A stretch of DNA of 53,535 nt, filler included, from Jimgerdemannia flammicorona (lineage: Eukaryota), in assembly GCA_003990765.1 (NCBI GenBank). It is 3 parts of 3 records of this genome, joined end to end, with 100 filler letters (N's around TTAATTAATTAA, not from the genome) between each part and the next. Parts side by side here need not be neighbours in the genome. Positions count along the whole stretch, not along the records: positions 35,765 to 53,535 come from RBNJ01002415.1; 2 more parts are not named here. One strand, written 5' to 3'. Position numbers and translations under genes: made by a program. Every line of letters starts with the position of its first letter. Position 1 is the first letter of the stretch. The notes under the pieces were generated by a model. The model searched no databases and was not told the origin of the DNA. It saw nothing but the letters and a program-made list of their open reading frames with translations. Shown here one piece after another: positions 17,783-51,894 of the stretch.

Positions 17783-17882
17783 NNNNNNNNNNNNNNNNNN
17801 NNNNNNNNNNNNNNNNNNNNNNNNNNTTAATTAATTAANNNNNNNNNNNNNNNNNNNNNNNNNNNNNNNNNNNNNNNNNNNN
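17783..17882. other. Artificial contig linker N44-TTAATTAATTAA-N44
   Basis: Six-frame-stop 12-mer centred in Ns; identical to 35665-35764. Confidence 0.97.
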
Positions 17883-26292: not shown

Positions 26293-27395
26293 ATTCTCTA
26301 TTATAATAATTAATAAATATATACAGTCTAATACTATATTATCTAATGCTGAATACTTGATATTATATGCAGTAAAAATATACATTCTATGACAACTATA
26401 CTCTTTATTTATTATAATGAAGTATTATTAATAGATGATATCCTATTATATATACTATTTTGCATAAATACTAATGAACTATATATAAATTTACAGCCAC
26501 TATGGTCCAGATTGTTACTTTACAGACAATATAATAATGCTAGTTCTGATAGTATAGTATATAGCTTAAGATGTGGCTATATCTAAAAAAAAAATTCAAG
26601 TATTATTGATAATAACAAAATAGAGTAAATACTATAAGATAAAGGAGAAAATAAAAACTTAAAAGACATTTTAATGATTATTAGCTTATAGTGTTGACTT
26701 TTCTGTTATATTATAAACTTGAAGTAGATAATTATTATATTTAGAGATTATTGTAATAAAAAAAAAAAAAAAAAAAAATAGTTGATATATTTGTCTATAG
26801 TCTGATACTATATAAGTTTTTGAAATTAATACAATAAAGTTAGTTTAATAAATAGTGATATAATCTCTTATAAACCTATATATCAAATTAAATAAGAGTA
26901 GTACAGATAAAATGAGAACAGTTATAAAATATTTAGTTGATTAATACTCTCTCTTGATATATATATTATCTTCTAATTGACTTATTACTGACTTACTACT
27001 TTGTACTCTATCTTTGATAGCTTATTGTATCTTATTGTAAAAAATTTAAAAAACAGTAGATTTGATCACTATTCTCTCTAGAAAACCTAATAATAAATTA
27101 TAGGATACTAGATTTCTCTTAAGCTCTATCTGAAGTTCTATAATAAATATTATTATTTATAGAAAAAATGGTAAAGAATTTCTATTTAATGACTCCTACT
27201 ATTTTTTCAACTATATATTGACTAACTGGACAAAATCAAAAGTTAGATTGTCAATAATCTTAGAGCAGAGATCTAAATATTAGTAATTATTTACTTATTG
27301 TAATGGTGACCCCAGAATGATGATATTAGCACAAGAGATAGTCTTTCCTTACAAGCCAGTAGATCAGAGCATAAGAAGATCATACGGTATATGAG

Positions 27396-28365
27396 ATGAG
27401 CAATGATGACCAATTGTGAGTCATTGTGACCATAGTTGAGTATCTTGAGAAATATAAAAGAAGGATCAAGGAACTGTAGTAGCAGCAACCAACAAGACCC
27501 ACTAATCCCAAAATAGCTCAAAGACTTACCACAAACAAAATATCTGCTACTTGCCAAACCTCAAGGTCAAGGAACCATCAAGGCATCTCAGTTAAAGAAA
27601 GGATGTTCCAAGACATCAGAAGAGCCATGAGGACCTGCTCCTAGTATCAACCTGGGTATTGGTGACCCTTATCATTATATTCTCTACTGCCATGAAATGG
27701 AAACAAGGATCACTATTACTACTGAATATCTCCAAATATAGCAGAAGTACAAAATAGAAAACCTCCTCTACCAAGAGTTCCCACAGGCCAGCACTCAAGA
27801 GCTATAAGATGCCACTTCCATAGATATATGTGAAACAAGGACAGCTAAGAAGATCCATCAGATCTTCAGGCATGTACCATAGTTGATCCCCAACTTGGAG
27901 TATGTTAGAGTCTCAGATTTCAGAGACCTATCATCTCACTGTATCAATGTACTAGAAGCCAGGGTGGCCACAGAAGCCCAGTCCACTATCACCCTTAATA
28001 GTGATGAAGTAGAAGACTTCTGGCATTCCATTCTCCAGAACAACTCAGATCAATTCCTGCAAGGATTGATCTCAGTATTCCAAGGCCCAAGTATCCAGAT
28101 TAGACCTCCCCAAGACCCCACATTTGTTCCCTATTTTGTGGAAGAGAACCTCATAGACTGGAGAGCTCCAGATATCCTTGTTCCTGCTGCTGCCACTGTT
28201 GAACATGATGATGTCATCTTACATGACATGAAAGTATATGAAACATGCAACCTATGTGATGACAATGACAAGACAGATGAGATGTTCATGGACCTCATCT
28301 CCTTCAAAGACATCCTGACCTCTGATGAGGATGAAGCCCTTATGGTCTTGAACATTCTGCTCTAA
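27396..28365 (+). pseudogene. LTR-encoded ORF of family B (about 320 codons in consensus)
   Basis: The open 160-aa C-terminal part (27883-28365) extends in frame through 27697 (METRITITTE...) across three TAG/TAA stops; the last two read CAA and TGG in the 50.9-kb copy. One small indel near 27636 links it to the MSNDDQL... frame from 27396. Confidence 0.72.
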
Positions 28366-28375
28366 GTCCTTTGGT

Positions 28376-28470
28376 TATACTGAATAATACCAGCACCGGC
28401 ATTTTGATATAACACTGAATAATGCCAGCATTGGCATTTTGATGTAACACTGAATTATACTAGTATCCTG
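28376..28470 (+). repeat. 35-bp tandem repeat (about 2.6 units) in LTR B, immediately after the ORF stop
   Basis: ACACTGAATAATRCCAGCAYYGGCATTTTGATRTA repeated. Confidence 0.85.
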
Positions 28471-29901
28471 AACCTGTACAACTATCAGTGCCAACTCTGG
28501 AACTTAGCAGTTTTTTCTGTCCTGGTATTTTATTTTAGTTATTGGAATTTATATTTAGCTTTATATCTTAGCAACCATTGAATTATATTTTGTATAAATA
28601 CCCCTCTTATTTCCTCTAAAATAAAGTCAGCCTATTCAGTTCTAGTTCACTTATACACAATCCCTTGCAAGCAATCTAAGAGATAATAAGACAGTTTAAA
28701 AGATAAGAAGTTTGAGGACTATAAGACCTTGGGAAGGTACTCCAATAAGAACTTGCTTATAACAAACTTGAGTTAGTCTAAGAGATACACCTTGAAGAGA
28801 ATCTGGCATATTTGAATGACTCAGCGACCACTATATGACATTATATAATCTATTGGAGTTTTTCTTAATAATTTTATATATATTATCTTTCAGTAGAACT
28901 TTTATAGTATATTACTAAAGAATAGTAATAAGGCAGACTCAGAAAATTATTATTTATTTATTTATTAGTAAAATATTCTAGTAAGAGATATTAATAATAG
29001 CTACAGTAATATACTTTAATAACAGATTTATCAAGTAATCTAGTAAGGCTAAGATTGATCAGAAGCAGATTATTTAAAATCTCAAAAATGATGTTTTTAG
29101 AATAGAGGTCATGATGGATATAATAGAATATATGAAGATTAGTAAGACAGTAGAAAAAATAGAAGAATAGTTATACAATAAGGTTTTAGTCATTTGAGTA
29201 ATAGGAAATAATACTTTTAAGAGTACTATGTAGAGTAAATTCAAATACTGTTAAGTATTGATAGTCTTTAGAATAGTGAGAGAGACTAATAAAACAAATA
29301 GTAGATTCTATATCATAAATAGTCAGATAAAAATTTAAGACTAACTATAAAAGTGAGTTTAAAATAAAAAGTAACAGTATAAGTAGGTTTGAAATAGAAT
29401 ATAATATTATAAGTAAGTATTAAATAAAAAGTAGTAGTATAAGTAGAAATAAGACAAAGTTAAATATAGTAATCTTATATATATATCTTAAAAGAGCAAA
29501 ACTCATATCTCTTTAATTTCACTATTCAATTCCTTAAGTATAAAGTATACTATAGTATTCTCAATATTGAAAGTAATAGTTCTTTTATATATCTGTAATG
29601 GTTTGTTACATACAAATCTGTCAAATTTATCTTATTATGCTAAACTGTACCTAATTAGGAAATTGCCAAAATTGTCTATATTATATGAGAACTTATATCT
29701 ATTTTGAATGAACATTTTAGCCTTTAAAAATTCTAACTAAAATTCCAATAGAAATTTTATTGGAAATTCTAATAAAATTCCAACTAATAGTTATAGATAT
29801 CTCATATAGTATAACTATATATAAATATATCCAGTATACTATATTTAGCCATAATCTTAAATATATATAAATATTCTCTATACTGAGTGTATTGTAACCT
29901 C

Positions 29902-31086
29902 CCCCCTTTCTCCGCTACCTTACTGGTCACAAGGTTTGGTAGGCGACTTCTGAGTTCCCTTTCCCCTATTATTACCCCCTCTACCTCAGGTTGGTTTGCT
30001 GTGCCTGCAGGGGCATGGTGGGAGGAGGGCGATGGTGATGAGTTGCCCCTTTATCGGTGTCAGATCGGTGCTTCCTCCACTTTTTCGCAGATTCTGGTGC
30101 CTTCAGCTGCGTCTGGGGTGTACCCGTTTTGGTGCAGTGCCTTCTTCCTTTTGCCGTCACCAACAAGGAGTTGTCTTGGTGTGTCTCGGGCTACGTGGGG
30201 AGTCGGCCGACCTTGGGCGTCAAGTGCTCAGTGTAGGTTACCTGCAGGTCCTCGGTGCCTGTGGTGGGGCCCTCTGGCTTTGGTGAGCTTCCCAGTGAGC
30301 GCGGTTCTGGTGTAGGTGACTGTTTTTCGGGTGTTGTCGGAATGGGAGGGGAGATGGCCATCACAGATAGGCGGAAGGGTGATAACGGTGAACCAGTAGG
30401 GTGCCAGGCTGGGGGCAGTCATCGGGGCTGGGGCGGGTGCTGCTTCGGTGGGGCCTTTTGATTGGCGCGGTGCGGTTAGGTGGTAGGTGTCACTCTTGGC
30501 TTCTTTGGGCGATTCGTGGGGTTGGGCCCCAGTCGTCTGGGGGGGTCAGGGGGGCCCGAGGCTACCCATTTCAGGCGTCTTGGCTACACTCAACTGGAAC
30601 TAGGAGCTGACACAGCAACATGATTGAGGTCCACAGGCTTGAGTAGTGGGATATTGGGGGTCTCCTCCCACCTCACGTATAAGTCCTCTACTCACCTTGA
30701 CTGGGAGAACCAGGCCCTATCCACCATGTTGTGCTTTGATGAGGGTTTTTTCTTTGCCTGTCATTCTCTTTGGGGTGGCAGGGGCTATTCTATTCAGCTT
30801 GGGCGTGGCCTTGTACATTCATTGGGTTCTTGGGCATATGCTTTCGGTCGTTGGTGTATGGCTGGGTTTCCCCTGGTGGTAGGGAGAGCATGGTGTGCAG
30901 AATGAGGTGCGGGCTATTTGCCCTGCTGCACCTGGCATGGTCGAGCCGCTGGACAATAGCTAGCCTAGGTTAATGGGGGGGCAGTGCTTGATGGGTGGTG
31001 GGGGAGGGTTTTGACCTATATAGTCTAGGTTCCCTTCCAATAAAAATCCGCGGGACATAGAGTCCGTTAAACAAAAAAAAAAAAAA
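29902..31086 (+). mobile_element. ~1.2-kb poly(A)-tailed non-autonomous retroposon, young copy
   Basis: 15-bp TSD GTGTATTGTAACCTC (29887-29901, 31087-31101), AATAAA at 31039, poly(A) tail, CpGs largely retained. Confidence 0.92.
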
Positions 31087-32288: not shown

Positions 32289-32901
32289 TAGTGCTCCAAA
32301 TAAGCTGATCCAGATCAGATTCTAATCCCATCTGGATCAACTTGGATGGGAAAATAAGTTGATCTAGATCAATTCAAATCAACCATTGTTTTGATTTCCA
32401 AATTAGACAATTAAATGCTTACATCAATAACTTGATGAATAATCATCCAATTTTGATAATCTTGGTGCCATTTAAAAGCCCTTAATTAGGCCTTTCTAAT
32501 GATATTAAGAATATTGAAATTGGATTATGTGTTACTGAGTTATCAAGGAAAATGTCCGACTTGCCAATTTTGGAAATTATTCAACTTGCCAATTTTGGAA
32601 ATTTCTTCAAAAGATGTTTTCCTTAATAGCTTGGCGATGCATAATCTGATTTTTAATATTCTTAGTATCATTTGAAAGGCCTTATTAAGGGCTTTCAAAT
32701 GACACCAAGATTATCAAAATTAGATAATTATTCATCAAGCTATTGATGTAAACATTTAATTATCTAATTTGGAAATCAAAACAATGGTTGATTTGAATCA
32801 ATCCAGATTAACTTATTTTTCTATCTGAGTTGATCTGGATGGAATTCAATCCAAATCAATCCAAATCCAATCTGGATTAAATTGACTTATTTGGAGTACT
32901 A
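32289..32901. mobile_element. hAT-type palindromic MITE, copy 2
   Basis: Same termini and body as 24278-24823. 8-bp TSD GATACTGC/GGTACTGT (two transitions). Confidence 0.88.
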
Positions 32902-33125
32902 GGTACTGTTATCTCCCTAATTAGTCTCTCTCAATATTCTATCACTCACTGTTACTTAATAGTATTCAAATTTGCTCTATACAGTATCCTAGAATTCATA
33001 ATTTTGGACAATTTCAACAACTGAAACCTTATTATACAGATATTTTCTATCTCTCACACTGCCTAGCAAATATTCATATATTTAGCTATATTCACTATAA
33101 TCTCTAACTTAGAAATATTATTCTC

Positions 33126-34332
33126 CAGACTCCTTTCTCTACTATCTTACCAGTCATAAGGTTTGGTAGGTAACCTTCCAAGTCTCCATTTCCCTATTAT
33201 TATCCCCTCTATCTCAGGTTGGTTTGCTATGCCTATAGGAGTATAGTGAGAGGAGGGCAATGGTGATAAGTTGTCCTTTTATCAGTATCAGATCAGTGTC
33301 TTCTCCACTATTTTGTAGATTCTGGTGCCTTCAGCTGCATCTGAGATATACCTGTTTGGTACAGTGCCTTCTTCCTTTTACTATTACCAACAAGATGTTG
33401 TCTTAAAGTATCATGGATTACATAGAAAGTCAGCCAACCTTGGGCATCAAGTGCCCAGTGTAGGTTACCTACAGGTCCTTGATACCTGTAGTAGAGTCCT
33501 CTGGCTTTGGTGAGCTTCTTGGCAAGTATAGTTCTGGTGTAGGTGACTGTTTCTCAGGTATTGTTGAGATGAGAGGGGAGATGGCCATCACAGATAGAAG
33601 GAAGGGTAATAATGGTGAACTAGTAGAGTACCAGGCTGGGGGTAGTCATCAGGGCTGGGGTAGGTACTGCTTTGGTGGGGCCTTTGATTGGTACAGAGTA
33701 GTTAGGTAGTAGGTGTCACTCTTAGCTTCTTTTGGTGATACATGGGGTTGGGCCCTGGTTATTGAGAGGGGTCAGGGGGCCCAAGGCTACTTATTTCAGG
33801 CATCTTGGCTACACTCAACTAGAACTGAGAGCTGACATAGAAACATGATCAAGGCCCATAGACTTGAGTAGTGGGGTATTGGGGGTTTTCTCTCATCTCA
33901 TATATAAGTCTTCTACTTATCTCATTTGAGAGAACCAGGTCCTATCTACTGTGATGTACTTTGATGAGAGTTTTTTCTTTATCTATTATTCTCCTTAGAG
34001 TGGCAGGAGCTATTCTATTCAGCTTGAGTATGGTCTTGTATATACATTGGAATTTCAGGCATGTGCTTTCAGTCATTATTATATGGCTGAGTTCTCTCTG
34101 GTGGTAGAGAGAGTATAGTATACAGAATGAGGTATAGGCCATTATAGGCCCTGCTGCACCTAGTATAGTTGAGCTGCTGGACAATAGTTAGCTTAAATTA
34201 ATAAGAGAAAAGTGCTTGATGGGTAGTGGGGGAGGGTTTTGGCCTATATAGTCTAGGTTCCCTTCTAATAAAAATATGCAGGACTCTGAGTCTATAAAAC
34301 AAAAACAAAAATAAAAAAATAAAAAAAAAAAA
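33126..34332 (+). mobile_element. ~1.2-kb poly(A) retroposon, hypermutated copy
   Basis: Colinear end to end with 29902-31086. 16-bp TSD TAGAAATATTATTCTC (33110-33125, 34333-34348). Confidence 0.92.
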
Positions 34333-35664: not shown

Positions 35665-35764
35665 NNNNNNNNNNNNNNNNNNNNNNNNNNNNNNNNNNNN
35701 NNNNNNNNTTAATTAATTAANNNNNNNNNNNNNNNNNNNNNNNNNNNNNNNNNNNNNNNNNNNN
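35665..35764. other. Artificial contig linker N44-TTAATTAATTAA-N44
   Basis: Same as 17783-17882. Confidence 0.97.
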
Positions 35765-38700
35765 TTTTTTTATAGTCACTTAGACTGCAACTTTATTATT
35801 ACTATTATAATAACAATTAACTATGAACTACTACTAACATAATATATATAGGAAGGATTGCTCAGCCAACTCCTTTCTTCTACCTAACCCCATGATCATC
35901 TAACACCAGGTGCCCTCATCTCTGCTATATAATATCCTGCATCTTCTTTAAGGCCTCTGGTTGAAGCTGCTTTCTCTGATACTACCACCCCTATACTACC
36001 TCCTGGAGAAGCCACCTCTACTACTCCACTAACTCTCCGATTCCCATCCATAGGTCCTGCTCAAATATCCATCATCAATGTACTGCCATCAGAACCTAGA
36101 TCCCTAAGACCTAACCTAGGCCTCCCCAGATATCACCAATCTCTCCCACCAGCTGGTGCTTGACCACCAGACTGACTGGATTCCTAGATCTTCAACCCCC
36201 AGGGTCCCAGTAATCTTCAAAACTCTACCAAAACCCTTTAACCCTAGGACAGGCTACCAGAACATGCTCTGGTATCTGAACCATCCCTCCATCTACCTCA
36301 CTGCACTACTTGCAGTCCCAACAACTATCTACCTCCATCCAGCCTATCCTATAACCCAGCATCACATTTTTTCTCAAGAATCACTACCAAACTACCTAGT
36401 ACTTAGGGGGCACTACCTTGAGCAAAGAGGCTCCCCAACTTCAGATTCGGCCCCACTCTCAGTCTTTACCAAATCCTGCTCTCTGCCAACCAGCTGGCCA
36501 TCTCTCCAGAGGGCTAGACCTGATCCACTCCATTGCCTCAACCAGTGAGTACTCCTTCAAACTATGGCCACCAATGCAGAGTTTTCTCAGTCACCACCAT
36601 CTCTACTCTAGGTTCACACCAACCTCTATCTCTGGTCCTACTAACCTCATGGCCAGCCAGGCCTCTACAATGCCCCACCAGAACCCCTTAAACTGCAGTC
36701 TACCTATATTTCCAATCTGAAGCAGACCCTGCATATCCTTCCAAACCTCACCATAGAGGCAGAACAAACCTCCCAATTGTCTATGGCTAGTCTGCCCCAA
36801 CCCTCCTCACCTAGTACTACTAGGTGACACCCCTACCAACCCTGAAGTACCTTCAGCTAGCATCTGAAGTCCACTAACCCCAGGTCTCCATCAACTATCC
36901 TCATCACCACTGTGTCCCACCTGATCTGTGACCACTTTCTATTTTACAACTATCCTTCTATAATCTTCTTCAGCCACTGTACCACCCACTCTAGAAAATC
37001 CAGGTGATATTCTAGATACCACAATTTGAGCAACCAATATATATTCAAAATCACTATCCTACCTACCAAGGAGAAGCTCCTCCCTGACCAACCAGTCAAA
37101 GTATCTTCCAACTTCTGAATCAATCCACACTACCACTTCTTCAGCAGAACTGTTCTATATACTGAGAACCAAATATCCAGATACTGAATAGCACTTCCTG
37201 GGGCCACCAATTGTCCAAATTGTCCATGTACCCCCAGACTAGCACTAAGTTCCATTGTCTCACATTTGCCCCAATTCAACTTAGCCCCTGCCAGCCTATC
37301 AAACTGTCCAACCTCTTCCTGTAGGAGGTCCACATCCTCCATACTACCCAACCCTACCACTATGTCATCTGTGAAAGCACCTAGCTTCCAGACCACATTA
37401 TCTATTTATAGTCCAGTAAGCCATCTCTTTAGCCATACCAGCAAAGGCTCTAAAAAGAGTACATAGAGGAGGGGGGAGAGAGGGTCTCTCTGTGGTACAC
37501 CTTGCTCCAAGGCAAACTCCAGTCTACTTTATCCATTCATCATAACTGCTGCTCAGCATCTCTATACTAGGCTCATCAATTGCTCTGCCTCTGCTACACC
37601 AAACCCTACCCTCTTCAGAACAGTCTCCAAATAACTCCACCACACTCTGTCATAGGCCTTCTTTTAATCAAGAAAGACCATCTGGCCATCTACCTACCAG
37701 CTCCTACAGCCCTCCAAGACATTCTGCATTCAAGCAGTACTATCTCTGATCTATCTCCCCTTGATAAAGCCTCACTGCTCTTTCCCAACTAGCACACTAA
37801 TATACTGCTGCATCCTCACTACCAAAATATTTAAGACCAGCTTTCTATCTATATTCAGCAGCATGATAGGTTACCAATTATGCCACACTCATCGATCTCC
37901 CTTTTCCTTATATAGAAGGGAAACTAATTCCAAGGAATCATAACCGATCTAGCTGCCCTCCTTCAAAATGAAGTTAGCCATCTCCACCAACCAGCCACCA
38001 AACTCTGTCTGGAACTCCTTCCAGAATTTCCAGAGCAACCCATCCTCCCCAGGTGATGAGCCAGTTTGTGTCTTTCTCAATATCTCCAAGACCTCATCTA
38101 ATGATACCTCTCTTATGACCATCTTACCTATCTCAGATAATGCTATTACTGGCCAATTATTCACCATATTGTCATTGTCCTCCCAAAGTACTGTATCCTC
38201 AGCATTGTCCCCACCATCCTGCAAGAGAGCCTGTCATTGTCCCGATATCTCTCCCAATATATCCACAATCTCTGAGATCTTTACTCTATCTTCACACAAT
38301 ACTGAGGCCCAGCTATGTCATACTCTCCTGGCCTTCAAAATACCAGACAGATATTTAGTCAGCCTCTCTCCTTCTTCCAGCTATCTAGCCTGCAATCTGG
38401 CTAGCAGGCCATCTACCACCCTGTTCTCAGATATCCTCAAGTCTGTCTACAACTCTGCCACCTCTACTATCAACTGGTAGTATACCTCTCCAGACAAGTT
38501 TCCCTCTTCTAATAACTTCAATTGCCATTATAGCCTCTGCTCCACTCTCCTTTCCTTGTCCTTCTGCTCCTTTCCAGCCACTTCTCCAACATCATGCCAG
38601 TAAGTACCTGCCAAATGTTTGAATTTACCCCACCATTCTACTATCAACTGCCCATCATTCTGCCATTGTGCAATCTCCTGTCTTGTAACTGCCACAAATT

Positions 38701-41400
38701 GCTCTCTCTCCTTCTTCCTTCTGAGTAAGGCCACATTGAGATGCCAATGCCCTCTACCACTGCCTGCTGTTTGGAATCTACCACACATCTCTACTCCCTA
38801 GTAATCAGACCAAGAGCACCAATGTACCTCTGTAATGTCCAGCATATTGCCCCAGCACTCAGCTACTAACACCTAATCTATTCACATCTCAACCAATCTA
38901 TTACCAACTGGGTGCTACTGGGTAAAGGACCCTGACTTATCCCTCTGATGCTAATAAATACCATCCACCAATCCTATGTCATGCTCCACCTGAAGCCATT
39001 AAGATAGACCAGAGGACATTGCTACTTCTGCTCCACCATTAGACCTATCCATTGTTTGATCATGCACCATATTAAAGTCTCCCCCCAGAATGTCCAAAGC
39101 AACTACCTTCCAACCTTCTTAAGCTTGCCAGCTCTCAATCTATTGCTTTCGCTCTCTGCCAACTGTAGGGAGGTAAACTGAGCCTACTGCAAAACCATTA
39201 TCTGCCCCTTCTTTTAGTCTTCCCCATACCAGTCTGTTACCATAGACCACTACCTCCACTTTGCCTATACTAACCAAGATGCCCACCTGCTTATTCCAAC
39301 CTACCCCACTGTATCATTCTTTACTCCACACCTCATAGTCTTGCTCCCCATAAGCTCAAATGTCCTGAAGAAAAACAATATCATATCTCCTGACTTTAAG
39401 CTATCAGAATAGCTACCATCTCTTAACCCTATCATGCAATCTATTGACATTGATTGATAAAATATATAAACTGTTCATCATCATTAAAGAAATTGTTTAA
39501 AGCATAGCTGGGACTGCCACACCCTTCTCAGCCCTTCCTCTAATGATCTCTTACTGGTTCTCACAAATTGCCCTCCTGATACAATCACCATTCACACTGT
39601 TGCAGAAAAGATCCACTCTTAAAGCTGTTATCTTTCTGATGTCTGCCATTCTGCTCTTATCAACTTCATATCCTTCATCATCCAGAAGAGCTGCCACAAT
39701 TGCCATCACCAGCTTGGGCCCCTATATTGTAACATTGAGAAATACTTCTCATACCTTGTGAGATCCATGAAAAATGTCCACTTCCTTGATATCTTCCTCC
39801 ACAAGTTCCTCAAGTACTACCTGATACTAGTTCTCTGCCATTATTGCCAAAGGCCCAGGAGTCGATGGTCTAGGGGTCCTGCTTAACTCTTGCAGCTGCT
39901 CTCTGTCTGCTGACACATCAGAGGCCACATCCATCAGCTCATCCTCCTCTGCAACCTTCTCCAAATGTACCACTTCCCCAGCCTCAGGGCACTCCCAATG
40001 AATATTTGCCACCTCAGTTATATGGGTGTCCTCCATCTGAGTCTCTGGTACTACTTCAATAATATCCTCAAAGTCCCCCTCTCTCACCTCCTCCTTATCT
40101 GCCCACTTTTCTCTCATTGGTACATACTCTGAGCTTTTCACACTACCCAGCTGGGAGAAGGACACCTCGATAGCTTCAACCCCTTCCATCTGATTCTTGA
40201 CCACCTCTGTTCTCATCTTCTCTTCCAATACTACCCCTTGAAGAGCTGCCTGCAGATGCTCTCCATTTCCTTTCCTCTACCTTCTGCCTGCCATTAGCTT
40301 GAATCCAGACCCAATCCTTGGCAAACTCTTCCCACTTCCTCTTTCACAGCTCCTTGGCAGCCTCTCTCTCCTCTAGAGTAATTGCCAGCTCTTCCTTCTC
40401 CTGTTTGGCTCCTTTCCTCCTCCACACCTTGCACTCTTGTCCTCTAATCTGAATCCCCTCTGGCCAATCCTGTCTCAGCCCTATTGCCTCCTTGCCTTCC
40501 AGTTACAGCATCACCTCACAGTTGCCATTCCTCAGTTTGGTGCCCTCTCAAAACATGAATCTGAAATCCACCATCTCACCATAGCTCTCCAGTGCCTCTA
40601 CCATTATTGTCTTAGTCTCCTGTCTGTCCAGTATTGGCAGGCCTTCTACTACCAGCCATATAGCACACAGGTCCCACCTCAAACACCTCATCATCCCAAT
40701 CCCGATACCCTTAACAGTCAGCTCTTTCTCCAGTGCCTTCATCATTGTCTCCTCTTCCACAAATCCAATCTCCACTGCCTCCACCAATAGGATAAACTTC
40801 AAGAACTCTGCCTCAGCCACATTATCCCCCACCAGTCTCAGAACCTCCCTAGCTAACATTGCCAATCCCAGGAAGTTCACTGAAACTGCCCATATTGACA
40901 CCAACTTGTAAAAGAAGAGCTGCACTACTAGCTTACCTGTCTCAGCCACCAGAGTCACCTTCTCTTTTGTTCCGGAGATACCAGTGGTCACTCCACCAGC
41001 CATAGCTGTACCACCAGTAGTCCTCTCCCCAGCCACCAGCCTAGCCCCAGAATAACCAGTCTCCAATATCATACCACCAGACCCCTGCCCCCTGCTGGAC
41101 ACCTGACCTGTTACCTGACCCATCACCTGACCCCTCCCCCTATCAATACTATGCCCCCCCTGCCCCACTCCCAAAGGCCTGGCTGTAGCCCTCCTGCTCC
41201 CTACTACAGTATGCCAGACCTTGATTCCACCAGACCTCCCCTGACCACTAGTCCCTCCAGTAGCCATACTAGCCCCTGCAGCAGCTACAAAGCTCTTGGG
41301 AAGGTCCAGACCAGGCCTCCTCCTCTCCAGATGCTTAGAGCTAGAGGAACCTTAACTAGCCATATCACCAAAACTTGATGGTTTTTGCTGAAACTTATTG
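35765..41400 (-). mobile_element. Near full-length L1/Tx1-like LINE: ORF1 ~41267-39484, ORF2 (APE+RT) 39478-~35870, poly(A); many premature stops
   Basis: ORF2 starts MNSLYILSINVN. DILGGDFN near 39070-39095, GRGHWHLN, SPGEDGL, GVPQRDPLSPLLY near 37460-37500, AFTDDIVV, GAKLNWGKCE. Tail AATAAA...AGTCTAAGTGACTATA(A)n at the contig start. 5' end approximate. Confidence 0.9.
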
Positions 41401-41534
41401 TGCCTTATAGATAGACTCCTGCTGCATGATGTACACTAGTGTATTTGAAATAAAAACTTGAAAATATATTGTCTTTCACTGAAAGATGTCTGTGTGGCTT
41501 AGCTTGCTCTGAGTAGTTTGAGCAAAAGAAGTCT

Positions 41535-44431
41535 CTTTTATTTTATAGTTACTTAGACTTCTACTTTATTACTAACTAGTCTATATTATACTAATATAGT
41601 ATATCTCTCACTCAATTCCACAAAGTATCTCCTCCTCTCTCTCTCTCTTTCTATTTCTTCAGAAAGTTATCATTCCTCTAACTATCCTAATCCTCCTCTC
41701 ACTTTGCTTACAAATCTTCTCTACAAGCTCTTAGAGCTCCTCTACAGGTCTCCACCCCTGCTACCAACTATTCAAAAGGTTCAGTATCAATCATTTCTAT
41801 CTTATAATCTGTAATCTAAGTGTCAACTACTATCTCTTCTCAAATATATATAGCTAATATTCAGTAAGCCCAATCTAAATAACTAGAGCCCACTCAATAG
41901 TTAACTACTCATTACTAATTCCTCTCACCAGTCTTCTCTGGAGATCATCCCACCTCTTCTCTCCCATTAGTCCAGACAGGTATACTCCTATCTAATCCTC
42001 AATCACTCCCTGAAAGTCACCCATTATCTCACACTCTCTCAGCCAATGCTCAGGAGTCTGTATCACCCTATTCTTCTACTTAATATTAATACACTCCTCA
42101 TACTCCAAGGTACTCCCTTCTATTAAATATTCCAACAAATAGTTCAACATCACATTACACTATAAAAGTCTTCATTATACTACCCAAAACTTGGAGAAAA
42201 TCCACCATACCATCTGCTTGCTCTATGACCAAATACTATTCCAGTCTTACTCTTTACCAATCTTCATCCCTTGCCAAGCCCCCAGCCACAAATCCCTCCT
42301 GTACTCTCAAAGATACTCTATATTATCCTCTAATCTGAAGTTATCTACTAGTGTACCTCCCAATAGAAGGTGGTCCCATCTTTATATCTGGGGTCTCTAA
42401 TCAACCTCTCTCATTGCTCTACTATTAGAGGTCAATTCATCAAGCTCTATCAATCATTCCTTACTAGAATCTCCTAAAGTATATCTTCTAGCTCCCCTCC
42501 AGTACTATCAGAGAAAGTAAGTTATCTGATACATATATTATAGAGAGAGAATCATACCTCTCATACCCTCTCATACCCTCTACATAAAGAGTACTCACTC
42601 TTGGCCCCTCAACTCATTAGCTCACTTCAGCCACTATATCCTCAAGTAGTATAAGTACTTAGTAAAGTCCACCAGACCCAGTGCTCTCTTGTCTACTAGT
42701 AATATCAGCACCTTCCAGCCAATTTGAATTCTCAACTCTATTCATATCCAGATCCTAGCTATCTTCAATAACCTTTTAATTACCCATACTAAAAATCTCA
42801 AGTAATACTCCAAATACTATAACTTAGACAGCCAATATATATTCAATACTATCTAAAGAGATATATCTGCTACTATACTCCAGAAGAGTATTCTTCTACT
42901 CAATTAGCTACTGCTTCTACCATCTCTGAGACAATAGAGAGCCATATACTGAGAAGTAGATCTCTAGATAATAAACTACCTCTCTCACTGAGATAACTGT
43001 TCCAATCACATCCCTATCTACTATCTCTCTACCTAGAACTAGAGTCTCACACTTATACTAGTTAAGCTTTATATATATCTGAGTATCTCTCATATCATTT
43101 TACTGCTCTCTTCAGTACCATCATATCCTCTACAGAGTTCAGCCCAATTACTATATTATCAGTAAAAGCTCTCACCTTTTAATTTACTCTTAGAATATTC
43201 AACTCTTCTACCTTATATCTAATCTTATTCAACAGAGACTCCAGAGAGAGGGCATATAGAATTAATGATAGCAGATCTCTCTGTAGTACTCTTCTGCCCA
43301 GGAGAAATGAAACCCCCCTTAGCAGTCTGACTTCCCTTCAATAGACTAATCAGAGATTATCTAAACTCTGGGAGAACCCTTATATACTTTAGTACCCCCT
43401 CTAACCACACTTGCCAACCTTGTCATATAACTTCTTTTGGTCTAGAAATACTAATCAACCATCTACCTCTGAAACATATACTCCTTCAATAATACTATGT
43501 ATTCATGCTATTCTATCTCTTATCAAATGACCTCCTATAAAGCCCCTCTGTACCTGCTGAGTTACTCCTTATAGTCTTACTACTAATATCTTTATAACCA
43601 GCTTGCTATCTATATCTAGAAGTATGATTGGCCTTCAGTTCTTCCACTTCTCTCTTCTTCTCTTATATTTGTATAATAGAGCTACAAGATCTAGATATTG
43701 CCCCCCAATCTAAACCTTTAAGCTAATAACTTCATCATATATCTACTTAATCTCCTCTAAAGCCAACTCAATACCTGCTATCCTCTTCTAGAAATCTCAC
43801 AACAGACTATTCTTCCTGTTCTGAGACTCATCATTGTCAATATCTTATAGATCTTCTCTGCTTGAACAGGTACTCTAAGTTGATCTAAGCCTACTACTGG
43901 ATCTGAATATCAATCCTCCAGATGCTATTCAATGTCTAGTATATTCTCTCTACCTTTTCCCTTACTATATAATTGCTCCTACTATGAACTCAACTGGTCC
44001 AAGATCTCTAGAGTTCTAACCACCATCTCTTCTATCTTATCTAATACTCCTTTCTACTATTGCCTCACCCTCCTTGCCTAAAGAAGCCTTGATAGGAACT
44101 TCATAGGTCTCTTCCCCTCTTCTATATCCAACTACTATAGCCAGGCTATCATACTTCTCATCTATACATCTTTCTCCTGCCTCAGTATTTCCTTTAGCTC
44201 CTCTATCTCAAGCCAGACCTACTGAACCCTCCAATCTCCCTCCTCTCCATTGTTTGGCAAATCAGTCCATATCATCAATAACTTCTCTAATCTCTAAAAA
44301 GCCCACCTTAGATGATTTCTCTCTGAGCACCCTTCACCCTCCTTGTCTCTCTCTAGAACCATTATATATCTGATTTAAAATACTATCATTAATCTCCAAT
44401 CTCCAGCCTCTCTACTCTCCCAATAAGAATC
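41535..44431 (-). mobile_element. Second LINE (ORF2 part, more decayed), cut at its 5' side by Gypsy LTR A
   Basis: Same 3' tail (TATAGTTACTTAGACT..CTTTATT) at ~41544-41570. Degenerate AF(T)D(D) near 43155-43170, Q(G)D(P)LS near 43270-43285, WRPIILLD near 43615-43640. Confidence 0.8.
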
Positions 44432-46493
44432 TGTAAGAGGGTTGCTATTTAAAGTAACTGTTACATAGTTCTGGGAGGGTTTTCTGGAAGTTCTGGATAT
44501 TCTGGAAGACTGTTTTCTTTTGGTCAAGATCAATTTTATATGGAGTATATCCTCTATGCTTATTGATTTTAAGATCGGATTGACATCTCAACCAAAGTCC
44601 TTTTTCGGACTAGTTCTGGATGTTCAGGATTTTTCTGTATTTCAGGAAGTTCAAGAAACTAAGACCAGCTTAGTTGAATTGGTGTATCGCTGCAGACAAT
44701 ACTCAATTAGGAAATTTCGTGACAGGGTTAGGAGTGGGACCTAACGGGAAGTAGATTTACTTAAGAGTGGTTTGTGGGTTATTAAATAGGTTTATTCGCT
44801 ATTCATAATATTGCTATACTAGGAGTAGTTATGTGAAGGGGTATTGTGGAGAAGTATTCAGAAATGTTCTTATGTGTTCAAGTCTGAGATTCTGAGGTCT
44901 GGGGGAGGGGGTATTTATACTAGTGAGGGGTTATCTGGACTATGCTGAATATGGATGTAATACTAAGTGCTTTGCTGAGTCAGAATGCAGTCACATAGTA
45001 CAAGTGTGATCTGACATGTCAAGAGATTGTCTGACTGCTGAGTCAGTTCACAGTTATGTCGTACAAGGCTAATCTAACTATACTATGACTGCTAGGCTAT
45101 TTATGGGTTTAGGCACTATCTGGGTAGTCCTCGATGACATCACCATCGATTGCATCATCTCTGATGAAGTAGTCGCCCAGGAAAAGTGGTTCGCAGATTA
45201 CTTCTCCTTGTTCACTGAGATAATAATATATTGGAACTTCATCTCCATCCCACAGGATAGCATCGTCTGTCTTGTAGGCTAGATAAGGTGTTGGTGGACA
45301 AAGGAGGGGTGCATCATCTTCACTTTCATCAGATTCGCTATCTGTATACCTTCTGTAGATTACAGTACTATGAGTCACAGGGTTGTAGTAAGCTGGTGGC
45401 TGTGGTTCATGTCACTCATACTCGGGTGGTGGAGTGGTTGGTTCAATCTTGAGGGTTATCTGGAGGTACAGGTTGTATTCTCCAGTCTCTTCATTGTAGT
45501 TGAAGTAATCGGGAATGAATGCAGGTTGGTATTCGTGCCAGTGGTCATTGTCTCAATAAGATTCATATGCAGTTATGAACTATTGTAAGTTCATCGGCAA
45601 GGTTGGGGGAGTGATCAGGGTTGGCAGAGATCCTTGGCTAGAGGTCATGTTGGCATCAGAGGGATCATTGTCTTCTGCTTTGTCTTCATCAAAGTGGATT
45701 ATATCATAGATGTCCTTCATGGCATATCCAACTTGGGGCATTTGCAGGATATGATCATTGGGGTGTGGGAAGATTCTATCTGTGGTTTCAATGTACTCGA
45801 GGTACTTGTGGTTGAGTTCTTGTATCATGTCATCGATTTGACCATAGGACAGAGTAGTAACCATTTCACTGGTAGTAACTCGGAGGCGGGAAATAATGGT
45901 ACTATACTCATAGAAGAGTTCTCGATGTTTGCGGGTGATGAGCTTCTGGTGTTGAGACATCTGGGTAATGTCTGTATCATGGTGGTGTTCAACCATGTCT
46001 TCCAGGAGGCGGCCAATCTGGTAGTAGCTTGAGATTTGTCTGATTCAGTGGGCCTCACTAAGCATGTTCAGAGCATTCCATCGGGCTTCCATGAAGTAGA
46101 GGGGTGCTAGGCTATGGATAATCATGAGGGGCAGAGGGGGTGTAGCTTAGTTGACAATAGCATTCCAAATATCAGTGCAGATATAGTTGTAGATCTTGGT
46201 AGTTATGTTTGTGTGTTTGGAAGTTGTAGTTGTTGTTTGTTTTGGTTCTCTGATTTGAAATCTCTCGGTGCTCAGTATATATGCATTTGGTCCTGATTGG
46301 TAAGGTTCCATTTATGTAATTCTTGTGTTCTGTAACTTCATATTGACTCAGCTTTGTATGCTGTGACTTCAGTTTGACTCAGCTTTATGATCAAGCAGGT
46401 AATTTCCAGATTTGTTCAGAGGTCGTGTGTGATTTCAGTGGCTTGTTCTGAGGGTGATGTGTAATTTCGGTGGCTTGGAGGTGTGTGCTTACA
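44432..46493 (-). mobile_element. Gypsy family A complete 3' LTR (2062 bp)
   Basis: 6-bp terminal inverted repeat TGTAAG...CTTACA. Preceded on the minus strand by PPT AAGAAGGGGAGAGT (46494-46507). TATAAATA at 44919-44912 and AATAAA at 44796-44791. Confidence 0.92.
45109..46206 (-). pseudogene. LTR-encoded ORF of family A (366 codons, one frame, start ATG>ATA, a few transition-derived stops)
   Basis: ORFs 45996-45580 and 45378-45109 share a frame with ATA at 46206 (ATG in copy 1). Internal stops TAA/TGA/TAG revert by a single transition. TATATA at 46281-46276 lies upstream. Confidence 0.85.
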
Positions 46494-47815
46494 ACTCTCC
46501 CCTTCTTAGCTTTCGACATCCTCATTGAGGCCTTCTAATTTTGTTCAGTGGTACAGAGAGGATAGGCTTGCTTTCAGTGTTGCCATTTTTCCAGAGGGTC
46601 AGTATTCTTGTCTTGTTTTGCTGAGTTCTTGGTTTAGTTTGCAATAATTAATATGTTCAGGGGGATAATATATAGTATGTACAGATAGGTGCAAGAGTAT
46701 TTGGTTCTAGTTGTTCAAGGAATCATATTCCTGAACTAGATCAATAGCATTCTGAAGATTGGTCTTGGGTTGTTCTTGTTTCTTGTTATGCTTGGTCATT
46801 TGGGTGAGGGCAGTAGCGATTTTAGCAAAGTTGGCAACAAATTGCCTGTAATAGTTTGCTAATCCCAGGAATGACTGGAGGTCTTTCAGCTTCTTGGGTC
46901 TGGGCCAATCCTTGATTGCAGAGATTTTGCTAGGGTCTACTTTGATTCTATTTGGAGTGACAATGTGTCTAAGGAATTGAATTTCTTTCAGGAGAAATTC
47001 GCATTTGCTGAGTTTTGCAAAGAGTCAGTTTTCTCGGAGTTTTAGGAGTACTAGTTCAAGGTGTTCAAGATGTTTCTCCAGGGTTTTGCTGAAGACTAGG
47101 ATGTCATCAATGTAGACAACAATGAATTTGTCCAGGTATGGATGCAGAATGATATTCATCAGTGTCTGGAAGGTTGCTGGAGCATTAGTTAAGCCAAAGG
47201 GCATATTCAGGAACTCGAAGTGTCCATAGCGAGTTCAGAAAGCTGTCTTGTAGATGTCTTCTTCTTTCATAGCAATTTTCCAGTAACCATTTTGCAGGTC
47301 GAAGGAGCTCATGAATTGCAGGTTGGTAAGTCTGTCGAATATTTCATCGATCCTCGGTAGTGGGCAACAGTTCTTGATGGTCTGTTTATTGAGATCGTGG
47401 TAGTCAATACACATTCGCAGGTCTCCTCCTTTCTTGACAACAAAGAGGACTGGTGCACCATAGGGAGATACACTGGGTCTGATGAATCCTTATTCTAGGA
47501 GTTCGTTGATTTCCTTCTTGAGTGCATCAATTTCTCTCAGAGACATGTGGTAGATTGACTTGAAGGCTGGGTTGGTATCTGGGATAGTCTTGATTGTATG
47601 GTCTACTGCTTGTTTGGGAGGTAGGCCTTTTGGGAGCTTCTTTGGAAATATGTCTCAGAATTTCTGGAGTAGTGGTCTGACATGGCTGTCAACTTTAGAG
47701 TAATCTTCTTCAGAGTTCTCGGGTTCTCCTTTGGATAGATGGATGGAGATGGTGAAGAGAGGATATTTCTTGGCCAATTTCTTAAGTTGTAGCTTGTTGA
47801 TGTGGGTGATCTTTG
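46494..47815 (-). mobile_element. Ty3/Gypsy pol fragment (RT plus connection; RNase H core and integrase missing) of family A
   Basis: [59 protein letters not shown] and FLGLANYYRQF read on the minus strand. Confidence 0.93.
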
Positions 47816-49380
47816 GTCCAGGGTCACTAGAGTTCTGTAGAGTGGTATGAGGAGTACTCTGAAGCTAAGCTGAATTGGCATAAGTGTGAGACAATAGTGC
47901 TAGGCAATAGCCTGGTGGGAGGGGAAGTTATAGGAACAATCATCCCCACTGGTGAAGCAGTGCGGTACTTAGGTATCTACTTGTCAGTCTATGGGTCAGT
48001 TCTGCCCAGGCTATGGTGGGAGCAGAGGATTGGAATCTGGGAGGAGGCCCTGCAGAGTTGGGGGGGATGATATTTTTCTCTGGCAGAGCAGGTCTCAATT
48101 TTGAATGTCTACTGGCTGCCAAAGTTGTGGTACCTGGCATATCATCTGGACTTCCCAGCCTGGGTGGTGAAGAGATTGTTGAAGTTAGTGAAGAGATGGA
48201 TTTGGGCTGGTAGGTGGAGTCAGATTAGTTGGGAGACCTTGTCCCTACCAGTAGCAAGAGGTGGTCTTGGGCTGATTGACTTTCCAAAATGATTACACTG
48301 CTTGAGAGTATGGTGGCTGAAGAGGGTAGTGGAGTTGAAAGGAGGTGGATGGGTCCCTCTACTACAGAAGATATGGGAGAGGCGGGTATCGCCAAGGGGC
48401 TCAACTGGAGATCTCCTCTCCTTGGTTGGGCTTCAGAACACTGCCCAACTGTGATATAAAGGATTTTGGTGGGGGATTGCAGAAGAGGTACACCATATTG
48501 GTATTCATTGGTAGGAGAATGAAGGAGAGGAGGATTGGGACCTGGCAATGTGGAGATGGGATTGTCTACTGCTGGGTAGCGCTCCTTTAGTTGAGTTCAA
48601 CATTGGTGATAGAATGGAATGTCAAAGGGGACCAGGCCAGGATCTGTGGCCTAGCAGTTGGCAGGGAGTTGGTATTGGCAAAGAGTGGAACTGGCATGGT
48701 GTTTGGACCTGGAGTGCTGCAGTGAGAACATGGCTGCTGCCAAAGTACTGGGTGGTCTGGTGGCACATGTGGCGGAGGAATGTTATGCTCAACTTTCATT
48801 CAGGGTATCTTGTTGTAGGGGGTTGCTTTGACTGTAAGGAGTGCCATAATGTAGGGCAGGAGGGGGGTTACGTACAGACACCAGAATATTGGCTAGGGGA
48901 GTGTGAGGTGTTGGGGGATTTTTGGCAGACAATTGGGGATCGCTTGGGGGTATGGGGTAGGGGTGATGAAGTACGGGGGTGGTGGGAGGACTTGAGGGAT
49001 AGATTGGTAGGGGGGATAGGGAAGTAGTGGCTTACTTTAGGTTGGGCTTTAGCTATTTGGGTGGGGTTGGCCAGTCATTGGCTATTTGTTTTTGAGGATA
49101 GGAGGAGACAGAGCTTGGGGGACCAGTTGCTGTAGTAGCATAGGCTTATGGAAGACACCTTAACAGGCTGGTGGCTGGGTTGGGGGATGCAGGGTGGTCG
49201 GAGGTGCCACTTGGTGGAGAACATTTGTGGGCAAAGTGGGGGGAGAGTTGGGGTAGTTGGTGAAAGGGTGATTTTCATTTGTGAGAAAATAGGGAGGGGC
49301 CCCCCTGTGGGAATTGGATAGTGGGTAGGAATGATGTATATTTATTCATAGACTGGTAATAAAGGCAGAGTCCAAGTGAC

Positions 49381-49425
<45 letters not shown>
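47816..49425 (+). mobile_element. 5'-truncated LINE 3' portion with ~42-nt poly(A)
   Basis: AKLNWHKCE, RYLLV, LPVARGGLGLID, C-terminal CKEC..QTPEY...C. AATAAA at 49358, then the tail AGTCCAAGTGACTAT(A)n. Confidence 0.88.
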
Positions 49426-49439: not shown

Positions 49440-50345
49440 CAAATTCTCTAGCAATAAAATATCTATTAAAAAAAAAGTACTTCAATATTTACTATTAAAC
49501 CTATTCTAATTTAGAAAGTTATCAAGATATACTAAAAACTTCTCAATATAAGAACTATATGAGCTATAGTAAAGTATACAAATATACACATTATAACATC
49601 TGATAAGCTATATATATATTATGAAGCTATAACTAGTTCAGATACATAGTAAGAAATGAAAATAAGCTATAGATGATAAATATGATTGTCTATTGAGAAT
49701 AATATATAAGATCTAGCATCTCTTTTACCAAACTATCAAGCAATCAGATCTGAATAGATATATGATAAAATATAATACTGATAGAAATATAAAGTAGTGT
49801 AAAGCTCATTTTATAGCTAAAGATTATTTATAAGATTATAGCATAGACTATTATAAGACTTTTTTAACTATATTTAACTCACTTCACTTAGAAAGCTCTT
49901 TATAATTAGTATGCTATATATATAATTTAAAAATCTATCAAATAGATATTAAGATGGCTTTTTTATATAGTAAAATTATTACTAAACTATATATCTATCA
50001 ATCTAAAGAATAAAAACTTATAATAGTCAGAATAGTAATCTTATATATAAACTATTTAAAAGACTATAGAGTATTAAATAAAAAGTATAATTATGAAATA
50101 AAAAATATAATTAATAATAGATTTTTATATTATAAAACAGATAATTATATATTTATTCAGTATTATTATAATGGTAGCATACTATTCATTAGTATATAGA
50201 TGAATGATATTATTATCATTATTAGTAAGAATAGGCTTAATAGAGATAAAGAAGATCTATACTGAAAGTTCAAGATAATAGATATAAGTAATACATTCTT
50301 CCTTTTGAAAATATATATTAATTATATATTATAAGTAATATATAT
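49440..50345 (+). mobile_element. Heavily decayed Ty1/Copia RT remnant
   Basis: KAHFIAKDY..DYSIDYYKTF (= KARFVAKGY..GIDY.ETF) at ~49800-49863, YQIDIKMAFLYS (= HQMDVKTAFLYG) at ~49935-49970, degenerate YVDDII near 50200. Confidence 0.8.
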
Positions 50346-50351
50346 ATATAT

Positions 50352-51894
50352 TATAACAATGACCTCAGAATGATGAGATCATTATAGGAGATAGTCTTTC
50401 CTTATAAGCCACTAGATCAAAACACAAGATTATATAGCATAACTTACCCAGGCTATGAGATGAGTAATAATGACTAACTATGAGTCATTATGACTATAAG
50501 ACAGATATCTCAAGGAATATAAAAGAAGGATCAAGAAACTGCAGTAGCAGCAACTCAAACAAGGCTCACAGAAATAGTTTAAAAGACTTACTATAAATAA
50601 AATACCTGCCACTCACCAAACCTTAAGGTCCAGAAACCACCAATGCCCCTCAGTCCAGGAAAGGATATTCCAAGACATCAGAAGAGTTATAAGGACCCAC
50701 ATAAGAAGGACTTCTAGCCTCAACCTGGGTACTGGTGACTCTTATCATTATATTCTCTACTTGTAAAATGGAAACAAGGATCACCATTACTATTGAATGC
50801 CTCTGGATATACATAGCAGGAATATGAAATAAGAAACCTCCTCTACTGAAAATTCCCTCAGGCCAGTCTCCAAGAGATACAAGATGCTACTTCTATAGAT
50901 ACATATGAAATAAGGATAGCCAAGAAGATTCATCAGATCTTCAGGCATACACTGTGGTTAATCCCCAACTTGGAGTATATTAGAATCTCAAACTTCAAGG
51001 AATTGTCAGCCTGCTGTACCAATGCACTGGAGGCCATGGTGGCAATAGAAGCCAAGTCCACTATCACTCTCAATAGTGATGAAGTAGAAGAGTTCTGAAA
51101 TCCCATCCTCCAGGACAATCCAGATCAATTTCTGCAAAGATTGATCTCAGTATTTTAAGGCCCCAGTATTCAGGTTAGATCTCCCCAAGATCCCATCATT
51201 TGTTTCTTATTTTGTAGAAGAGAATGTTATAGATTAGAGAGCCCCTGCTATCAGCAAACATGATGACATTATTAGTGATAATGTCATCCCACTAATGGGC
51301 AACATATACAAAGTATGCAAAATGAACAAAATGTTTACTGACCTCATTTCCTTTAAAGACATCCTGTCTCTGATCTTTAGCCTTAATAATAGTGATGAAG
51401 ATGAAGCTCCAATAGTTCTGAACTTTCTGCTCTAAGTTCTTGATAATACTGAAATCTACCAGTATCCTTTTTCTATATAACTGAATTCTACTAGCATCCA
51501 TTTTCCTATATTTCCAAAATCTACTGGCATCTTGAACTTGTACAACTATTTGTATAGGTACTTGAATTTATACTTACAACTGAAGTTTTTTGTGTTTCAG
51601 TATTTTATTTGGTTATTGGAATTTATATTTAGCTTTATATCTTAGCAACTATTGAATTATATTTTGTATAAATATCCCTTTTATTTTCTTTGAAATAAAG
51701 TCAGTCAAGTTCACTTATACTCAATTCTGTGCAAGCAATCTAAGAGATAACAAGATAGTTTAAAGATAAGAAGTTTGAGAACTATAAGACCTTGAGAAGA
51801 TACTTCAATAAGAACTTGTTAATAACAAACTTGTAGTTAGTCTAAGAGATATGAATCTGATATATTTTAAGATCTCAGCAATCACTATATGATA
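50352..51894 (+). mobile_element. Gypsy family B 5' LTR (1543 bp) containing the decayed U3 ORF
   Basis: Colinear with 27299-28840; termini mutated to TA...TA. Followed after 3 nt by TGG. Confidence 0.88.

Follow-up and report, generated by a model that had tools for sequence, protein, structure and literature searches.

A degenerate 365-codon sense gene probably located in the U3 region of a chromodomain Ty3/Gypsy long terminal repeat from Jimgerdemannia flammicorona

The stretch of DNA analysed here (the window; 53,535 nucleotides, filler included) joins 3 parts of the genome of Jimgerdemannia flammicorona (assembly GCA_003990765.1). The last of these parts, from record RBNJ01002415.1, carries on its (−) strand the remains of a Ty3/Gypsy retrotransposon, whose apparent 3′ long terminal repeat (LTR) of 2,062 bp, at positions 44432–46493, encloses a degenerate open reading frame (ORF) of 365 codons. 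Self-BLAST of the window revealed 3 copies of this repeat, LTR-A, which we designate copy 1, copy 2, and copy 3. The repeat at 44432–46493 is copy 3, the least mutated of the three, and all positions and codon numbers given below refer to it unless another copy is named.

Upstream of the repeat, a Ty3/Gypsy reverse transcriptase (RT) is encoded at 46772–47435 (−) (RVT_1, E 8.4e-31 at 47435–46971). The RNase H and integrase are deleted, and the RT joins in frame the Pol chromodomain at its C-terminal end (other copies read EPKTNLQNAIDLVQEYDSLNN there), and this end together with the pol stop (TAG, 46709–46707) occupies 46707–46771 (−), as judged from the translation and from the loose ends of contigs that locate the breakpoint. 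These contigs, from the public runs X1, X2, X4, and X7, were placed on window positions 43900–47500, and depth is the summed contig depth, which cannot rank the parts of a gene, so that all depth arguments below are hints only. The X2 and X4 contigs exit the window sequence at 46771 and continue in the same frame as GYPIHDATW, which together with the next window codons reads TWEPKTNLQNAIDLVQEY...NN-stop. We take this segment, read by eye and too short for Pfam, to be the putative C-terminal half of a chromodomain. The continuation at 46771 therefore suggests that the window element is a chromovirus with an in-frame deletion reaching from the RT end to the middle of the chromodomain. Pol ends 214 bp upstream of the LTR; the interval includes unit X, a 199-bp non-coding stretch between the pol stop and a polypurine tract (46508–46706, −) that is 81% identical to 10397–10542. 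Pfam analysis of the read-through frames of 47430–48620, in which gag and protease were sought, returned 0 families; a candidate zinc knuckle and a candidate protease were read there by eye. A word-7 BLAST of the window revealed no second LTR-A upstream of the internal fragment.

The repeat has a perfect 6-bp terminal inverted repeat, TGTAAG at 46493–46488 and CTTACA at 44437–44432. The 13-nt polypurine tract, AAGAAGGGGAGAG (46495–46507, −), is separated from the LTR start by a single T, and the tract also precedes copy 1, where it reads AAGGGGAGAG. At the opposite end, homology to the other copies stops at 44430–44432, and public contig cover, which ends at ~44432, falls from ~1000–2700 to 2–3. 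Past 44432–44434, one X2 contig continues in the sense direction with ACT TGGTAGCAGCAG and one X4 contig with the shorter ACTTGGTAG; these letters may be a tRNA-type primer-binding site, given their likeness to the 3′ end of a tRNA. A primer-binding-site pattern search gave 0 matches within the window, which holds no 5′ LTR of this element, and Rfam and tRNA scans across the window gave no matches; a possible leader match at ~48574, with 16 of 19 letters, is a hint only. Because of the termini, the polypurine tract, the pol stop and chromodomain end upstream, the primer-binding-type sequence, and the drop in contig cover, positions 46493 and 44432 are, on sequence grounds, most probably the ends of the LTR of a chromodomain Ty3/Gypsy element. 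This agrees with the preliminary description of the locus, which had proposed a Gypsy LTR delimited by the same termini and by the tract.

In the sense direction, the LTR reads as U3 with the ORF, the TATAAATA box, R, and U5. The ORF, a pseudogene of 365 codons plus a TAA stop (45111–45109), spans 45109–46206 (−); it starts with ATA, not ATG, and contains internal stops at codons 20, 54, 209, 218, and 265. A TATATA element (46276–46281, −), located 70 nt 5′ of the ORF start and kept in copy 1, is a possible promoter of the ORF, and a 45-nt A/C-rich leader with no ATG lies between the two. The main TATA box of the LTR, TATAAATA (44912–44919, −), is invariant in copies 1, 2, and 3 and lies 190 bp 3′ of the ORF stop; both the upstream TATATA and this spacing had been described before and were found as claimed. 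AATAAA at 44791–44796 (−) is a candidate polyadenylation signal in R. Provided that the LTR extends from 46493 to 44432, the whole ORF, which sits between the LTR start and the TATA box at 44919, would be inside U3.

Three contig observations concern these ends and signals. An X7 loose end at 46493 was considered as the flank of a 5′ or solo LTR and rejected, since its flank, which is no polypurine tract, has 8 letters in common with the loose end in the chromodomain; it may represent another internal deletion. One X2 contig (depth 2) joins 46445, in the LTR 5′ terminus, to 44803, a few bases upstream of AATAAA. Neither a 2-LTR circle nor a tandem LTR would account for this R-to-U3 junction, and the contig may be chimeric. 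The depth of X7 contigs is 900–1176 over 44626–44867 vs at most 38 upstream of the TATA box; if X7 is an RNA run, which is a guess, this would suit R/U5 transcripts driven by the LTR promoter, but the depth was not counted as evidence.

Copy 1 (8569–10102, −) corresponds to 44885–46444 with 77% identity and comprises U3 with the ORF in heavily mutated form. Copy 2 (10548–11640, −) corresponds to 44430–45521 with 84% identity and retains 1.09 kb at the 3′ side of the LTR, beginning ~140 codons before the ORF stop and running to CTTACA. The 3 copies reported previously are thus confirmed within these limits. The differences between the copies are overwhelmingly C>T/G>A; the share of sites changed is 0.65 in CpG, 0.48 in CpA, 0.29 in CpC, and 0.16 in CpT contexts, and no CpG remains in copies 1 and 2. 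Such a C>T/G>A pattern with a CpG/CpA preference is, as read from the copies, that of repeat-induced point mutation (RIP), and all 3 window copies of the ORF are evidently pseudogenes inactivated by RIP-like mutation: the ORF of copy 1 carries 11 internal stops as well as deletions of 43 bp and 1 bp, and that of copy 2 has 4 internal stops across its 140 codons.

Copies 1 and 2 are neighbors. No more than 3 nt separate the CTTACA end of copy 2 from a second unit X (10121–10547, −), which starts just past the equivalent of the pol stop and has its own polypurine tract, and the tract is followed by copy 1. The second unit X holds ~185 extra bases, which are present in public contigs too. This LTR–X–LTR arrangement could stem from reverse transcription of a subgenomic RNA, from a precise deletion, or from insertion in tandem. 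The homology of copy 1 stops at 8569 (equivalent to 44885), 27 nt past the TATAAATA box and approximately at the expected U3/R boundary. Beyond 8569, we observed a short palindrome (CTCAGAATCTCA ... TCTGAGATTCTGAG) followed by purine-rich sequence.

The ORF frame is more open and more regular than its surroundings. It contains 5 internal stops, vs a mean of 18.2 in 2000 shuffles (standard deviation 4.1, minimum 6), none of which had 5 or fewer, and the remaining 2 sense frames contain 16 and 36 stops. The counts of G at codon positions 1, 2, and 3 are 98, 41, and 48 in the ORF, and are flat (31, 31, and 25) in the non-ORF LTR; A occupies codon position 2 in 148 of the 365 codons. Transitions between copies 3 and 1 are distributed over the codon positions as 84/36/86 in the ORF and as 34/32/30 outside it. 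Because RIP swamps the transitions, transversions alone were used for the selection test. In the ORF frame, 13 of the 25 transversions between copies 3 and 1 are synonymous (52% vs 14.5% expected; binomial P 1.2e-5), as are 5 of the 8 between copies 3 and 2; when copy 2 is included and each site is counted once, 14 of 29 are synonymous. In the other sense frames, 4/24 and 0/24 transversions between copies 3 and 1 are synonymous (4/28 and 1/28 when unique sites are counted with copy 2 included), the codon-aligned antisense frame gives 3/25 (copy 1) and 0/8 (copy 2), and the frame-wise controls on the non-ORF LTR give 11/72. The frame specificity of the synonymous transversions therefore identifies the sense strand as the selected one. 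The ratio of nonsynonymous to synonymous change (dN/dS), which the preliminary description had put forward as a check, is ~0.16 by a rough estimate from transversions in the ORF frame, and not ~1.

Two relatives of the ORF protein were found, and both are free of stops. P0003 (JGI; 128 amino acids, from a contig of 1180 bp) matches residues 1–128 with 86% identity; its initial M coincides with the predicted start, and R occupies both stop positions in its range. P0002 (ENA; 247 amino acids, on a 998-bp contig) aligns to residues 115–364 with 63% identity, 79% positives, and two 2-residue gaps, and has Q, W, and Q at the remaining 3 stop positions. The C-terminus YPDSI is common to P0002, copy 1, and copy 2, with the same stop. 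An exhaustive profile search, in which the profile covered 247 positions, returned P0002 alone, and no homologue longer than P0002 or P0003 was present among 744 candidates. A search for DNA relatives of P0002 and P0003 in metagenome, genome, and viral contigs gave pattern matches and no relative. Because openness, codon periodicity, the synonymous excess, and the stop-free relatives are 4 independent lines, we regard the ORF at 46206–45109, as far as sequence can tell, as a former gene once under purifying selection. The accessory gene that had been claimed in the LTR thus survives as a sense-strand former gene, and the open frame claimed for 46206–45109 survives in part: it is more open than chance, but it has 5 internal stops and its ATG is lost in copy 3.

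The ORF protein is strongly acidic, with 62 D+E vs 19 K+R (net charge −43), contains 31 Tyr and 29 Pro, and has no hydrophobic span (maximum Kyte–Doolittle 19-residue mean of 1.23). Residues 1–140 are approximately neutral and predicted to be helical. Beyond residue 140, the protein is acidic and mostly coil in models, with conserved short blocks (DYFNYNE, PPTPY, YYYL, and YFIRDD), and this part is probably disordered and rich in short motifs. Both AlphaFold2 models of the protein are too poor to support a search by fold. In the translation of copy 3, PPPEY (residues 259–263) and PPAY (residues 270–273) lie at 45388–45432 (−), where they had been reported, and matches to [LP]PxY occur in this protein at residues 260 (PPEY) and 270 (PPAY). 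The corresponding sites read PPPKY and PPAY in copy 2 and LLPEY and LPVY in copy 1. The statement that the copies vary at these motifs by C>T/G>A alone is incorrect, because the second motif of copy 1 also involves A>G and T>A.

Our favored reading, to which we give a probability of about 0.62, is that 44432–46493 represents the 3′ LTR of a chromodomain Ty3/Gypsy element now in decay, with a complete sense-strand 365-codon gene in U3. A series of observations weighs against it. None of the 3 window copies of the ORF is intact. Codon 54 is TGA in copies 3 and 1, copy 2 lacks that part, and the 3 copies jointly give no continuous frame; the complementation proposed among them accordingly holds only where copy 1 has ATG and CAA in place of the ATA and TAA of copy 3. 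Neither a solo LTR nor a full-length element with a target-site duplication and the ORF in both of its LTRs was observed; the missing LTR pair at this locus may reflect local decay and need not hold for the family. Copies 1 and 2 were considered as both LTRs of one element, which the transversion counts do not support: over 627 bp, the two differ from each other by 11 transversions and from copy 3 by 12 and 9, respectively, so that they are no closer mutually than to copy 3 and are not shown to be an LTR pair. The depth of X1 contigs is ~1840–2700 downstream of the ORF stop vs ~480–1400 over the ORF, a step that could be explained, if the LTR reaches 46493, by ORF-less LTR variants sharing the promoter, R, and U5. 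Relatives of the protein are scarce, only 2 among 5.8 billion clustered proteins and 1 (P0002) among 1.84 billion representatives. Pfam contains 0 families matching it at E values up to 10, a PDB profile search gave just 2 chance matches (E 0.44), and the ESM Atlas offers no usable neighbor, its model of P0002 having a predicted local distance difference test (pLDDT) score of 0.39. AlphaFold2 gave no confident fold, with a pLDDT of 31.6 over the full length and of 49.5 over residues 1–128. By these comparisons the protein is an orphan; the profile and fold checks called for earlier thus produced no match and no confident fold, and also no link to a known gag or pol. Finally, P0002 reads PLSEY and PLAY and has no [LP]PxY match. 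Because P0002 lacks both motifs, the idea of a PPxY/WW-domain ligase link, drawn in the preliminary description for Nedd4/Rsp5, rests on one lineage only and is weakened.

The position of the LTR start is one matter on which alternatives must be weighed. The true LTR could be short, ~0.63–0.68 kb, beginning at TGTACG (~45063) or at the ORF stop, in which case the ORF would be internal and present once per element; the preliminary description had listed such a layout as refuting its claim. TGTACG shares 5 of its 6 letters with the terminal TGTAAG, and additional ORFs between pol and LTR have been described in other elements (PMC8365987, PMC7264820). Contig depth approximately doubles past the ORF stop (from 891 to 1841 in X1, from 87 to 239 in X2, and from 48 to 232 in X4), which also counts against placing the ORF in the LTR; however, this step is at the ORF stop, not at 45063, depth is unable to rank parts, and depth drops at 46493 as well (from 1055 to 138 in X1, from 81 to 13 in X2, and from 34 to 0 in X4). 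Moreover, no purine tract precedes 45063, whereas the 13-nt polypurine tract abuts 46493, in copy 1 too, and the perfect terminal inverted repeat is that of 46493 and 44432. We therefore hold an LTR with ends at 46493 and 44432 to be quite probable and a short LTR to be unlikely.

The remaining alternatives accept the position of the ORF or deny the gene. The ORF could be a passenger, either a captured host gene or the gene of another small element inserted into the LTR in a single lineage, and have been of no service to the retrotransposon. Such an origin would suit an orphan protein with no gag or pol link, and contig depth hints at related LTRs without the segment, which are maybe more numerous; but among the 1.84 billion representatives no host or other homologue besides P0002 was found, the synonymous transversion excess between diverged copies shows selection while the gene travelled with the LTR, and P0002, at 63% identity, shares the same end. 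We consider a passenger improbable. Another conceivable arrangement is a real gene on the antisense (+) strand, like brtn of Botrytis Boty, with the sense openness as a by-product. The codon-aligned antisense frame does have just 4 stops in 366 codons, but its share of synonymous transversions (3/25 and 0/8) compares poorly with that of the sense frame (13/25 and 5/8), T would fill 40% of its second codon positions, and the gene calls of both P0002 and P0003 follow the sense frame and agree with its start and stop, so an antisense gene is very improbable. The antisense frame (window 45073–46296, +), a by-product, could mislead gene callers. If the frame were open merely by chance and no gene had existed in the repeat, the stops in every window copy and the failure to find a family or fold would be accounted for, and yet this is scarcely credible given that 0 of 2000 shuffles were equally open, that the synonymous excess is frame-specific, and that 2 stop-free homologues exist.

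If the favored reading of a gene within U3 is correct, the ORF would lie within the genomic RNA at its untranslated 3′ end and would be copied into both LTRs; because reverse transcription copies U3 to both ends, every LTR would carry the gene. The ORF would most likely be expressed from a separate mRNA of ~1.4–1.7 kb that starts in U3 and ends at the poly(A) site of the LTR, as suggested by the TATA-like box, the ATG-free leader, and the position of the ORF upstream of the main TATA box and the candidate poly(A) signal. A spliced subgenomic RNA would be an alternative route. Each LTR could then be a promoter–ORF–poly(A) cassette. As for the product, our best guess, held with low confidence, is a protein–protein adaptor serving the element. 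An action of this adaptor through the 2 PPxY motifs on Rsp5/Nedd4-type WW-domain ubiquitin ligases is weakly suggested by its sequence. The 2 motifs lie in a Pro-rich, probably disordered region, as in PPxY late domains and PY-motif adaptors of Nedd4/Rsp5; by contrast, the ORF protein is not Gag, and the motifs are absent from its more distant homologue. An acidic activation-domain role would be our next guess, and direct DNA binding is argued against by the N-terminal domain, which is not basic.

A broader proposal, which we put forward tentatively and regard as doubtful, is that each LTR of the family is a self-contained gene cassette encoding an accessory protein in the retroviral manner, namely an acidic adaptor by which the element interferes with a pathway of its host, for example Rsp5-type ubiquitination or genome defence. 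If this were true, solo LTRs would persist as dispersed expressed gene copies, and the ORF would represent the first report of an accessory gene embedded in the LTR of a retrotransposon other than the animal retroviruses.

The rest of the window is repeat-rich, with a GC content of 22–58% and long strand-skewed runs. Directly downstream of the LTR lies a non-LTR retrotransposon of the long interspersed nuclear element (LINE) type (35800–41500, −; RVT_1, E 7.7e-20 at 37882–37250), the coding strand of which is strongly G-rich (GC skew of the (+) strand of −0.39 to −0.48 over 36–44 kb), and a second, weak RT fragment is present at 43643–43095. Upstream of the Gypsy fragment, a C-rich stretch at 48.6–49.4 kb is bounded by a run of ~40 T at ~49384–49425 (−) (poly(A) on the (+) strand). 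A host-type Kelch-repeat gene at 1456–3325 (+) (PF24681, E 4e-12 and 2e-12; GC ~45%) is not affected by RIP and is in pieces with short gaps, as expected of short introns; these gaps and the RIP pattern together suggest a filamentous fungus. Three other repeat families are a direct pair at 29905–31086 and 33132–34314, which are 3.2 kb apart, 80% identical, and include a kilobase of 57.8% GC; a 1.6-kb pair at 27278–28838 and 50330–51892 with 74% identity; and 24278–24826 and 32289–32904, which form long hairpins with arms of 183–196 nt that are 86–89% complementary. Four runs of 44 N occur as two pairs 12 bases apart (17783–17826 and 17839–17882, 35665–35708 and 35721–35764).

Complex retroviruses are distinguished by their accessory genes; descriptions of LTR retrotransposons usually give gag–pol only, with occasional internal extra ORFs. 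A gene in U3 would be copied to both ends of the element, would outlive the element in solo LTRs, and would scale in dosage with the number of LTRs. Such genes would be missed because transposable element annotation takes LTRs as non-coding and gene annotation masks repeats. If they act on host silencing or ubiquitination, they would constitute a hidden layer of transposon–host conflict in repeat-rich fungal-type genomes. By counting transversions alone, former selection can be traced even in copies that RIP has ruined.

Among the extra ORFs known from LTR retrotransposons, brtn is antisense, as Zhao et al. are said to have reported in 2011, unlike the ORF here, in which the sense frame was selected. 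Excerpts of the relevant publications describe additional ORFs (aORFs) in plant LTR retrotransposons (PMC7264820), brtn as an additional ORF of Botrytis Boty/BcGypsy1 (PMC8365987), an "add. ORF" in fungal chromoviruses (PMC2864245), and rice Retrosat2, with LTRs of >3.2 kb and an ORF0 upstream of gag–pol that, according to the excerpt, is found in no other organism (PMC3485330). As far as these excerpts go, the ORF described here resembles them as a lineage-restricted extra ORF in Ty3/Gypsy, sometimes with long LTRs, and differs in that they are situated in the internal region, whereas it would be inside the LTR. The phrases "in the LTR," "within the LTR," and "inside the LTR" have 0 occurrences in the aORF review (PMC7264820). 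We found in the open-access literature no fungal LTR retrotransposon with an ORF inside the LTR, nor any outside retroviruses. Since accessory ORFs in the internal region are already known, the novelty would be the placement of an accessory gene inside the LTR of an LTR retrotransposon.

Lentiviral nef and spumavirus bel/bet are 3′-terminal accessory genes that run into U3, and spumavirus LTRs are long for that reason. They share with our ORF a 3′-terminal accessory coding sequence in U3; unlike it, they begin internally and overlap U3 partly, whereas here the whole ORF and its candidate promoter would lie inside the LTR. The ORF protein has no sequence homology to sag, nef, or bel in Pfam (E up to 10) or in the PDB profile search. 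The sag gene of mouse mammary tumor virus (MMTV) encodes a membrane glycoprotein. Publications call it the LTR ORF, and control of the MMTV superantigen is assigned to the ORF in the 3′ LTR (PMC2118998). MMTV is an animal betaretrovirus and the element here a fungal-type chromovirus, and the ORF protein has neither a hydrophobic span nor a Pfam match; in both, nevertheless, a complete frame would lie within U3, be duplicated with the LTR, and be accessory beyond gag–pol.

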